Positions 28,652 to 29,704 of a stretch of 48,718 bases of DNA are shown one piece after another. The notes beneath the pieces were generated by a model. That model was given only the letters and a program-made list of their open reading frames with translations, searched no databases and had not been told where the DNA came from. Positions within the stretch are counted from its first letter, which is position 1; every line of letters starts with the position of its first letter. Source of the stretch: a virus (lineage: Duplodnaviria > Heunggongvirae > Uroviricota > Caudoviricetes); IMG/VR virus record IMGVR_UViG_2597489870_000007. One strand, written 5' to 3'. Made by a program: the position numbers and the translations under genes.

Positions 28652-29704
28652 TTATTTCCCCACCAGCTCGTTTATCTCTTTCACTGTCTGGTTAAACCGC
28701 TCTGACTCAAGCTCAACACCTAAGGCCCGACGCCCCAGCGCCATTGCTGCTTTTATTGTGGAACCGGATCCCATAAAAAAATCAGCAACCAGATCACCAG
28801 GTCGACTACTGGCATTGATTATTTGCCTGAGCATATCCGCCGGTTTCTCACACGGATGTTTACCCGGGTAGAACTGAACGGGTTTATGCATCCAGACATC
28901 GGTATAAGGCACGGAGACTGATACGGAGAAATAGCGCCGGAGAGATTTAAACTCATCCAGCAATTCAGAATATTTGCGATTCAGTGAATCATAAGATGCC
29001 ACCAGCTGGTGGTGTGGTTGTTCCAGTTGTTGTTCCTGAAACTTCTCTGCCGCTATACGGGAAAACAGTGCCTGTAACTTCCGATAGTCAGCCTCATTCG
29101 GCAACTGCCACTGACTGGCACCAAACCAGTGGGAAACCATATTTTTCTTACCTGTGGCTTCGGCAATTTGTTTTGCCGTTATACCCAGTTCGGCACGAGC
29201 ATCCCTGAAATACGATATCAGCGGTGCCATTATGTGCTGTTTGAGTTCCCTTTCTTTTGCCGCATAGCCGTCACTTTTGCCGCGATATGGCCCCTGGTAA
29301 TGTTCAGCAAACAGAACGCGCTCTGTGGCAGGAAAATATGCGCGCAGACTTTCTTTATTACACCCATTCCAACGTCCGGACGGCTTCGCCCAGATGATAT
29401 GGTTAAGCACGTTGAAACGTTCACGCATCATGATCTCAATATCAGATGCCAGGCGATGCCCACAGAACAGGTAAAGGCTTCCGGCAGGTTTTAACACCCG
29501 CCAGAACTGGGCCAGACAGTGGTCCAGCCACTTAAGGTAATCTTCGTCCCCTTTCCACTGATTGTCCCAGCCGTTGGGTTTCACCTTGAAGTACGGCGGA
29601 TCGGTAACAATCAGGTCAATGGAATCATCAGGCAGGGACTGAATAAAATGCAGGCAATCAGCGTTGATTAAATCAACACTGTTTATTTTTACAGTATTTT
29701 TCAT
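28652..29704 (-). CDS. DNA methyltransferase (N6-adenine/N4-cytosine, beta class)
   Basis: 350-aa ORF with motif IV TDPPY near the N-terminus and AdoMet-binding motif [10 protein letters not shown] near the C-terminus; lies between Q and S, where Stx phages carry stx. Confidence 0.8.

Follow-up and report, generated by a model that had tools for sequence, protein, structure and literature searches.

The stretch of 48,718 nucleotides analysed here (the window) matches E. coli ETEC H10407 with 100% DNA identity and is a lambda-like (lambdoid) prophage of that strain. It carries two separate cassettes, each with an orphan adenine methyltransferase of a known type, which probably have the expression and roles proposed below. 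One gene (28652-29704) lies between the late antiterminator gene Q and the lysis cassette, an interval hereafter called Q-S, and belongs to the M.EcoGII family. The other (34949-35602) lies in the counterpart of the lambda nin region and belongs to the phage Dam family. Both open reading frames are found on the minus strand at the positions given in the initial annotation, which had also described them as orphan methylases without adjacent restriction genes; both are intact N6-adenine methyltransferase genes. The two genes are ordinary: both are already covered by RefSeq annotation, both come from characterised families, and both are common, so that little new biology is involved. Among complete E. 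coli genomes, the Q-S methyltransferase is present in 21% and the Dam-type gene in 32%, and identical or near-identical copies are present in hundreds of genomes.

The prophage copy of H10407 is decayed. Its gpU gene is interrupted by an IS66-family element, its KilA-N open reading frame by an IS3-family element, and its tail fibre gene is frameshifted. Because of this decay, the functions of both enzymes are probably latent, and whatever role they may have at the phage level is probably not exercised in H10407. A more radical interpretation is that the prophage is dead and carries the two genes as inert passengers, whose reading frames are intact only because the decay is recent. The three disrupted genes fit such an interpretation, as does the expectation that both genes are repressed in the lysogen, and the near-identical copies in other genomes reflect phage spread and not selection by the host. 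However, the repressor, Q, lysis and replication genes are still intact, as are both methyltransferase reading frames, and induction could still express both enzymes, for instance modifying the DNA of a co-resident helper phage. We therefore regard inertness as a serious possibility, albeit not the reading that we favour. It concerns the H10407 copy only, and the gene identities are the same either way. The H10407 record also contains other copies of these modules in three places.

The Dam-type gene is found in the following context:

35602..36096, minus strand: PerC-family (yfdN-like) gene (PF06069), whose stop overlaps the Dam-type start by one base in TGATG
34949..35602, minus strand: phage Dam-type N6-adenine methyltransferase, 217 aa, WP_014640085.1 (PF05869, TIGR01712, motifs)
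34626..34952, minus strand: LexA DNA-binding domain-only protein, 108 aa (PF01726, E=2.9e-19, residues 1-65 only)

The start codon of the 217-aa product is an ATG at 35602 according to RefSeq, while a mechanical list of open reading frames extends the frame to a GTG at 35635. The protein matches PF05869 Dam (E=9.9e-46, 155.9 bits against a threshold of 28.1) and the NCBI equivalog model TIGR01712 phage_N6A_met (253.4 bits against a cutoff of 97.05). Its NPPY motif occupies residues 86-89. When the protein was aligned with the Dam enzymes of HP1, T1 and VT2-Sa, all of which are PF05869 members, residues D25, W27, T29, P30, L46, D47 and N86-S90 were invariant in the four sequences (motifs DxWxTP, LD and NPPYS). 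T1 Dam, HP1 Dam, M.EcoVT2Dam and presumably M.Phi93DAM are likewise small, lack a separate recognition domain and conserve these motifs. The separate NPPY Dam-like enzyme that the initial annotation had placed in the nin-equivalent region is thus borne out.

The gene is located between a replication gene and RusA/Q, in the early-right operon. The copy of dam in VT2-Sa is also found in the nin region, but NinB and NinE flank it there, whereas a PerC-like and a LexA-domain gene do so in the window. The start of the LexA-domain gene overlaps the Dam-type stop by 4 nt, and is translationally coupled downstream of it. The Dam-type gene is 99.1-99.5% identical to copies in phages 1720a-02 (99.1%) and PhiR40_1. 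Phage Ayreon, in contrast, has no Dam-type gene, and its LexA-domain gene follows immediately upon the PerC-family gene. The K-12 gene yfdM, from the CPS-53/KpLE1 cryptic prophage, is a C-terminal remnant that matches the final 41% of the Dam-type gene at 99.3% DNA identity; it shares the PerC-family neighbour, yfdN, but is truncated, while the gene in the window is full length. Some RefSeq phage records name this protein ‘phosphoadenosine phosphosulfate reductase’. We rejected this name: the protein in the window aligns to the PHROG family so called only towards its C-terminus (positions 283-492 of 495), and the name presumably spread to it from the remainder of the family.

GATC is the most likely target of the Dam-type enzyme. 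As its identity to characterised GATC members is only 24-32%, we infer this specificity from the record of the family: all the characterised PF05869 members that we traced, from phages of Gram-negative and Gram-positive hosts, are GATC-specific, T1 Dam and HP1 Dam among them. M.EcoVT2Dam has been reported to target GATC, and GATC methylation has been shown experimentally for M.Phi93DAM, an NPPY-only enzyme of a lactococcal 936 phage. The packaging-module methylase of a related 936-group phage, Phi.16, is a PF05869 member, and we take M.Phi93DAM to be an enzyme of the same kind. E. coli C227-11 has a GATC ‘Dam homolog’, M.EcoGV, which may or may not belong to the type discussed here.

A different or relaxed specificity might nevertheless be envisaged. 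Aside from its low identity (24-30%) to the T1, HP1 and VT2-Sa enzymes, the protein has two lineage-specific insertions after NPPYS, near residues 91-105 and 161-167, and its C-terminus is longer. A PDB sequence search retrieved no relative, and the phage Dam family offers neither a structure nor mapped recognition residues for comparison. Dam-like enzymes with BA/AB specificity are also known (the alpha-class, nearly non-specific Hia5/M.HaeV), so that a Dam-like annotation is no guarantee of a GATC target. Furthermore, the prophage has fewer GATC sites than expected (136 observed, 188-220 expected), and a dedicated target is thus not enriched. Against these arguments stand the uniform GATC specificity of the characterised members and a score on the equivalog model that far exceeds its cutoff. 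On balance, a target other than GATC seems unlikely.

Neither methyltransferase gene has the adjacent cognate endonuclease that defines a Type II restriction-modification system. The neighbours examined were Q, the small open reading frame, the holin, PerC-like, LexA-domain, RusA, KilA-N and DUF968 genes, and no restriction endonuclease model matched any of them in PADLOC, Pfam or RefSeq annotation. The only defence matches were marginal and unrelated to restriction: PDC-S22 on the KilA-N open reading frame (1.4e-05) and a CARF model on the LexA-like one (3.6e-04). Rfam gave no match in either methyltransferase region.

The Q-S interval contains the following features, in the direction of transcription:

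30312..31106, minus strand: late antiterminator Q, 250 aa from the RefSeq start (PF03589 Antiterm, E=8.8e-53; RefSeq ‘antitermination protein’)
30252..30280, minus strand: putative pR'-like late promoter, TTGCGT, 17-nt spacer, TAAGAT, 32 nt past the Q stop codon (read from the sequence)
30181..30208, minus strand: tR'-like intrinsic terminator, CCCGC-CACUGA-GCGGG followed by U7 (MFE -14 kcal/mol, z=-2.9)
29855..30082, minus strand: small conserved open reading frame, 67-75 aa (phrog_331, E=3e-26; no Pfam match), which precedes the methyltransferase in relatives
28652..29704, minus strand: M.EcoGII-family beta-class N6-adenine DNA methyltransferase, 350 aa, WP_000799656.1 (PF01555, motifs, identity to M.EcoGII)
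28619..28645, minus strand: intrinsic terminator, GGCCAC-GUCAG-GUGGCC followed by UUUUUAUUU, between the methyltransferase stop and the holin start (terminator scan; MFE -12.2 kcal/mol, z=-2.5)
28369..28584, minus strand: phage-21-type holin with dual start MKSM, which opens the lysis cassette (PF04971, E=3.6e-35; RefSeq essD)
27872..28369: lysozyme (PF00959, E=1.8e-45; RefSeq rrrD)

Assignment of the pR'-like promoter is based on position and sequence, as the consensus promoter scanner gave no report there. The tR'-like terminator, absent from the consensus scan, was spotted by eye and then folded; the second terminator (28645-28619) stands on the downstream side of the methyltransferase. The annotations of SfV and Ayreon include putative rho-independent terminators at places matching both. 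No sigma-70-like promoter was detected, either by consensus scan or by reading of the sequence, in the 150 nt that precede the methyltransferase ATG (29705-29855). Compared with a phage ‘moron’, an autonomous cargo cassette, the gene thus shows a terminator on its downstream side, with no promoter of its own seen upstream. Since the gene stands behind a pR'-like promoter and a terminator, and a second terminator follows, the enzyme would probably not be made until Q has brought about antitermination.

The initial annotation had viewed the Q-S interval as a site for late-operon cargo, and comparison with relatives agrees: it is a variable cargo slot, with fewer or added genes in some phages. 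The annotated homologs in SfV (orf48), mEp460, cdtI and Ayreon (‘DNA methylase’) show 96-99.5% DNA identity to the Q-S gene, and these four are viable phages, unlike the decayed prophage that harbors the H10407 copy. Their gene order is the same as here (Q, terminator, small open reading frame, methyltransferase, terminator, holin), with an extra 0.7-kb insert past tR' in Ayreon. Counterparts of the small open reading frame are orf47 in SfV, a hypothetical protein in 1720a-02 and a 204-nt open reading frame in Ayreon. The closest phage relatives of M.EcoGII occupy the same slot downstream of Q. In phage 1720a-02, which Murray et al. (PMC5778455) mention by name, the order is likewise PerC-like, Dam-type, LexA-domain, RusA, KilA-N, DUF968, Q, small open reading frame, M.EcoGII-like methyltransferase, stx2, S and R. 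There, stx2 follows the methyltransferase, whereas the lysis cassette follows it directly in the window. The Q-S interval of the window contains no tRNA genes of the kind found in Stx phages.

The methyltransferase gene of the Q-S interval starts with ATG, and residues 29-341 of its product match PF01555 N6_N4_Mtase (E=2.2e-42). DPPY at residues 35-38 precedes FMGSG (FxGxG) at residues 310-314, which is the motif order of the beta class, as initially annotated. The catalytic motifs are thus kept in both enzymes of the prophage. M.EcoGII, M.EcoGI and M.EcoMV (from prophage Phi4 of EC958) likewise show the order DPPY, recognition domain, FxGxG, are about 350 aa long and are borne by prophages. 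Alignment with M.EcoGII is colinear over the full length, with one 1-residue gap per sequence and 281 identical residues out of 349 (81%). Identity is 89% in the N-terminal catalytic part, 77% in the recognition domain (taken as residues about 160-237) and 75% in the C-terminal catalytic part; residue Q179 is the same in both enzymes. It has been pointed out, for another enzyme, that small changes in the recognition domain can alter specificity.

The Q-S enzyme was also compared with Anc291, a reconstructed ancestor, and with Anc284/SUPREM. Identity was 88.6% to the former (310/348) and 70.3% to the latter; all these identities, including that to M.EcoGII, are approximate because the reference sequences come from a machine-read PDF supplement (PMC11551740, Table S1) and contain a few OCR errors. 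M.EcoGII is 95% identical to M.EcoGI and about 93% to the 95JB1 homologs, so that the Q-S enzyme is more diverged from M.EcoGII (81%) and closer to Anc291 (89%). M.EcoGII itself is only 83.4% identical to Anc291 and 70.2% to SUPREM, which places the Q-S enzyme inside the sequence span that has been tested experimentally. Anc291 and SUPREM have no site preference, as shown on RNA, and every reconstructed ancestor methylated DNA and RNA alike; an AlphaFold model of the family has a four-helix-bundle recognition domain with a helix-turn-helix and forms a homodimer (PMC11551740). M.EcoGII, whose substrates include single-stranded DNA and RNA besides double-stranded DNA, modifies adenine whatever the surrounding sequence; it is silent in the prophage that carries it and harmful if constitutive (Murray et al. 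2018, PMC5778455). On these grounds, the Q-S enzyme is an M.EcoGII ortholog that would methylate adenine in essentially any sequence context.

One could argue instead that the Q-S gene encodes an orphan methyltransferase with sequence specificity, active in the lysogen as an epigenetic regulator and leaving a lysogen-specific motif: the PF01555 family is mostly site-specific, as is M.PflMI (CCANNNNNTGG), the nearest relative of M.EcoGII with site specificity, some RefSeq copies of the Q-S enzyme are named ‘site-specific DNA-methyltransferase’, and H10407 DNA carries CTTCAG methylation without an assigned enzyme (one preprint). However, M.PflMI shares only 27% identity with M.EcoGII, compared with 81% for the Q-S enzyme (77% in the recognition domain), every enzyme tested across the span of 70-100% identity is non-specific (on RNA in the case of Anc291 and SUPREM), homologs in lysogens show neither methylome signal nor transcript, and the gene has a terminator on either side, while no promoter of its own was detected; such a regulator is thus highly improbable. 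CTTCAG methylation was rejected as evidence concerning the Q-S methyltransferase, as CTTCAG is the complement of CTGAAG, which we take to be an Eco57I/AcuI-type Type IIG specificity.

In the lysogen, transcription would stop at tR'. After induction, RNA polymerase modified by Q would read through both terminators, and the Q-S methyltransferase would be made. Appearing late, it would hypermethylate replicating and packaged phage DNA, thereby weakening Type I, II and III restriction sensitive to adenine methylation in the next host, and its timing would spare the lysogen a toxic, Mrr-provoking modification. A similar logic has been found in Mu Mom and in the alpha-class Hia5/M.HaeV (Drozdz et al. 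2012): broad adenine modification, silent in the lysogen and toxic if deregulated, made late to protect virion DNA. The proteins are, however, unrelated or differently permuted: Mom is not a methyltransferase like M.EcoGII, and in Hia5 FxGxG comes first, as is typical of the alpha class. A 2025 review classes M.EcoGII and Mom together as expressed upon induction, lysogen-silent and toxic.

The Dam-type gene, translationally coupled in the early-right operon, is expected to be expressed early after derepression. In this operon, which reads replication gene, PerC-like, Dam, LexA-domain and RusA, its product would most likely keep fast-replicating phage DNA fully Dam-methylated. If GATC-specific, such activity would be masked by host Dam. 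One may wonder whether an early Dam-type enzyme followed by a late non-specific one constitutes a deliberate two-stage methylation programme, or whether an ortholog 81% identical to M.EcoGII has, unlike M.EcoGII, come to prefer certain sequences. Nothing in the data points to either idea, and we consider both highly improbable. Were the two-stage programme true, activity on single-stranded DNA and RNA could mark late transcripts or replication intermediates, evading defences beyond restriction.

The initial annotation had suggested anti-restriction or epigenetic roles for the two enzymes. The former is plausible. M.EcoGII-like enzymes, carried by prophages of E. coli O104:H4 C227-11 in the case of M.EcoGII and M.EcoGI, make up a very large family borne by prophages of E. 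coli, and overcoming host restriction is the accepted hypothesis for their function (PMC5778455). In contrast, an epigenetic role of the Q-S enzyme in the lysogen is unlikely, because homologs are silent in lysogens and harmful if constitutive, and the gene is bracketed by two terminators past pR'. The EC958 homolog of M.EcoGI is considered inactive, according to RT-PCR. The lysogen-specific methylation motif anticipated in the initial annotation is not to be expected. For this reason, a comparison of the methylomes of the lysogen and a cured strain would be uninformative: it would miss the Q-S enzyme and come out negative even with both enzymes fully active.

A suitable label for the Q-S enzyme would be M.EcoGII-type non-specific adenine methyltransferase. 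When copies are cloned, mrr-deficient hosts and tightly controlled expression are advisable.

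The methyltransferase gene located between Q and the holin gene (methyltransferase 1) encodes a member of the M.EcoGII family and, judging from sequence relatedness, its product is very probably non-specific. A second gene, found in the nin-like region, encodes a Dam-type enzyme. These genes and a small ORF adjacent to the first are:

28652-29704 (-): methyltransferase 1, 350 aa, ATG start; PF01555 N6_N4_Mtase, E=2.2e-42
29855-30082 (-): small ORF, phrog_331; no Pfam match
34949-35602 (-): Dam-type methyltransferase, 217 aa; PF05869 'Dam', E=9.9e-46

The coordinates, motif order and gene context proposed for both methyltransferases in the initial annotation proved correct, as indicated by the Pfam matches, by the positions of DPPY (residues 35-38) and FMGSG (310-314) in methyltransferase 1 and of NPPY (86-89) in the Dam-type enzyme, and by RefSeq, which lists the genes as WP_000799656.1 ('DNA-methyltransferase') and WP_014640085.1 ('phage N-6-adenine-methyltransferase'). 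Methyltransferase 1 is preceded by Q (PF03589) and an ORF of 67-75 aa (phrog_331), and followed by a phage-21-type holin (PF04971, dual start MKSM) and a lysozyme. Both methyltransferases are orphan: as initially noted, restriction genes are not adjacent, and PADLOC analysis of the neighbours of both detected no restriction-enzyme or other defence match beyond two marginal non-restriction ones (PDC-S22, 1.4e-05; a CARF model, 3.6e-04).

The methylome papers for E. coli EC958 and for O111 strains drew attention to two enzymes of E. coli O104:H4 C227-11, M.EcoGI and M.EcoGII, which are encoded on prophages and described as 'non-specific'. For M.EcoGII, a beta-class enzyme of 349 aa, Murray et al. 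(PMC5778455) showed adenine methylation regardless of sequence context, as much as 99% of dA in vitro and 86% of it in vivo, and activity on ssDNA and RNA as well. The enzyme is not expressed from its prophage, its constitutive expression slows growth, and overcoming host restriction is its probable use (PMC5778455). When compared with the M.EcoGII reference (GenBank EGT69837.1, taken from Supplementary Table S1 of the SUPREM paper, PMC11551740, as machine-read text with a few evident OCR slips), methyltransferase 1 is identical at 281 of 349 positions (81%), with one 1-residue gap in each sequence. Identity to the reconstructed family ancestor Anc291 is 88.6% (83.4% for M.EcoGII itself), and identity to the ancestor Anc284/SUPREM is 70.3% (70.2% for M.EcoGII). 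Anc291 and SUPREM have no site preference, as shown on RNA, and all reconstructed ancestors methylate DNA as well as RNA; among site-specific enzymes, the nearest relative of M.EcoGII, M.PflMI, is only 27% identical to it (PMC11551740). These relationships place methyltransferase 1 inside a sequence space where every tested enzyme is non-specific.

Potential control elements of methyltransferase 1 were found on both sides of the gene:

30314-30312 (-): stop codon of Q
30280-30252 (-): promoter-like TTGCGT, 17 nt, TAAGAT, read from the sequence downstream of Q
about 30208-30181 (-): canonical, tR'-like intrinsic terminator (tR'), CCCGC-CACUGA-GCGGG plus U7 (MFE -14 kcal/mol, z=-2.9)
28645-28619 (-): second terminator, GGCCAC-GUCAG-GUGGCC plus UUUUUAUUU, seven bases past the methyltransferase 1 stop codon
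28584 (-): start of the holin gene, after the second terminator

The layout from Q to the holin is the standard lambdoid late arrangement. The SfV record reads Q, terminator, orf47, orf48, terminator, S, and terminators are annotated at homologous places in the SfV and Ayreon records. No promoter match was detected in the 150-nt gap between the small ORF and methyltransferase 1. We infer a pR'-like late promoter and late timing: without Q, a short leader RNA would stop at tR', while in the presence of Q the polymerase would pass both terminators. Such an arrangement would explain why M.EcoGII homologs leave neither a methylome trace nor an RT-PCR signal in lysogens (methylome papers; PMC5778455), and fits a 2025 review, according to which M.EcoGII and Mu Mom alike are silent in the lysogen, toxic if artificially expressed, and made on induction. 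Some m6A patterns on DNA are targets of E. coli Mrr (PMC5778455; 2025 review), and the host of Murray et al. was deleted for mcrC-mrr (PMC5778455). Attack of m6A DNA by Mrr would be a further reason for strict late expression.

Other features of this region deserve mention. The phrog_331 ORF sits between tR' and the M.EcoGII-type gene in the H10407 prophage, SfV (orf47), 1720a-02 and Ayreon, and might possibly encode a partner or regulator of methyltransferase 1. The lysis cassette (27872-28584, -) looks phage-21-like, with the holin dual start MKSMDK...; the N-terminus of the lysozyme resembles a signal-anchor-release endolysin, and we take it to be a candidate SAR protein. Directly upstream of Q, a DUF968 protein (31078-32073, -) has an HNH-like C-terminus (PF06147, plus PF16784 just above cut-off); the record of 1720a-02 calls it 'antitermination protein Q', apparently in error.

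The 2.1-kb segment around methyltransferase 1 is 96-99.5% identical in phages Ayreon, mEp460, cdtI and SfV, and about 91% in Stx2c phages. The closest phage relatives of M.EcoGII itself (93%) are found in Stx2a phages and in phage 1720a-02, the latter named by Murray et al. (PMC5778455). In 1720a-02 the gene order is PerC-like, Dam-type, LexA-domain, RusA, KilA-N, DUF968, Q, small ORF, methyltransferase, stx2, ..., S, R, and the Dam-type protein is 99.1% identical to that of the window. Hence, the two-methylase arrangement was already present in described phages. Ayreon, in contrast, has the same backbone without the Dam-type gene, its PerC-like gene abutting the LexA-domain gene, which shows the Dam-type gene to be an optional cassette. 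Among 5,426 complete E. coli genomes examined by megablast, the first gene is at least 80% present in 1,158 and the second in 1,725; in K-12, a C-terminal part of the second survives as yfdM.

The Dam-type enzyme scores 253 bits on the NCBI equivalog TIGR01712, 'phage N-6-adenine-methyltransferase'. Its gene lies between a PerC-family gene and a gene for a protein with only a LexA DNA-binding domain, the latter followed by RusA, the split KilA-N gene, DUF968 and Q. The start of the Dam-type gene overlaps the upstream stop (TGATG), and its stop in turn overlaps the start of the gene that follows; it belongs to a translationally coupled series of five genes that begins with the replication gene and ends with RusA. 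Because of this coupling, the Dam-type gene should be expressed with the early-right operon upon derepression.

T1 Dam and HP1 Dam are GATC enzymes. Both belong to PF05869, as does VT2-Sa Dam; in alignments, the three share only 24-30% identity with the Dam-type enzyme, which keeps the invariant motifs D25-x-W27-x-T29-P30, L46-D47 and N86-P-P-Y-S90. No relative among solved structures was detectable by sequence. M.EcoVT2Dam has been reported to be GATC-specific (E. coli methylome paper), and for M.Phi93DAM, a lactococcal 936-phage enzyme with NPPY as its only motif, SMRT and DpnI/DpnII digestion demonstrated GATC methylation. In the related 936-group phage Phi.16, the packaging-module methylase is a PF05869 member, of which M.Phi93DAM is presumably the counterpart. 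Because members as distant as these share GATC specificity, GATC is the best guess, and we consider it likely that the Dam-type enzyme methylates this site; relaxed specificity exists in other Dam-like enzymes (PMC5778455, among others). The window contains 136 GATC sites, fewer than expected from base composition (188) or from a Markov model (220). Only 9 lie in the first 8 kb (1-8000), where about 30 are expected.

The adjacent LexA-domain protein (34626-34952, -; 108 aa) lacks a peptidase domain; its gene, translationally coupled to the Dam-type gene, is conserved in 1720a-02 and Ayreon, and the protein could modulate SOS boxes after induction. In RefSeq, PF05869 Dam-type genes are named 'phosphoadenosine phosphosulfate reductase' in NC_004313.1 (ST64B), NC_049941.1 (Stx2a_WGPS2), NC_021315.1 (Chi) and NC_052979.1 (Kokobel1). 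PHROG 33262, which bears the reductase name, has 495 positions, and the Dam-type protein aligns only to 283-492. We suspect that the name was taken over from this family and is incorrect when applied to the stand-alone gene.

The window corresponds to positions 5,072,386-5,121,103 of the E. coli ETEC H10407 chromosome (NC_017633.1), with 100% identity across 2.1 kb around the first gene. The order is that of a lambdoid prophage (integrase and the Dsr1 defence gene, immunity, replication, nin-like, Q, lysis, head and tail genes), and all phage genes treated here lie on the minus strand. The prophage is decayed, with three damaged genes in the RefSeq annotation:

817-4175: tail-fibre gene, marked frameshifted
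about 15113-17728: IS66-family ISCro1, splitting the gpU tail terminator gene
32828-34101: IS3-family element, splitting the KilA-N gene that lies between RusA and DUF968

Both methyltransferases, Q, the lysis genes and the repressor remain intact ORFs. At the integrase end, next to the integrase gene (47495-48718), the prophage carries as cargo a full-length gene for the anti-phage sirtuin Dsr1 (43485-47312, -; 1275 aa), which matches the PADLOC Dsr1 model end to end (2730 bits). Upstream of the replication gene, in the early-right part of the prophage and within a mechanical ORF (37137-37973), Rfam gathering-level matches to C4 antisense RNA (RF01695; 37425-37512, -; 82 bits) and to the Hfq-binding RNA isrK (RF01394; 37537-37613, -; 64 bits) suggest a P1/P7-style, C4-regulated antirepressor module.

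The initial annotation proposed anti-restriction or epigenetic roles, to be examined by comparing the methylomes of the lysogen and a cured strain. Such a comparison would not discriminate, because an active M.EcoGII-type enzyme would be locked behind tR' and a GATC enzyme masked by host Dam, neither altering the methylome of the lysogen. The CTTCAG methylation reported in H10407 DNA has the asymmetric six-base form that Eco57I-like (CTGAAG) Type IIG enzymes produce; for this reason, it is not attributed to either gene. Both genes are already annotated, widespread and from characterised families, and published phage genomes carry them together. It is unlikely that they have an epigenetic role in the lysogen. 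An anti-restriction role is reasonable and is the published hypothesis for the family. As infectious particles are probably beyond this prophage copy, any anti-restriction role would be latent here.
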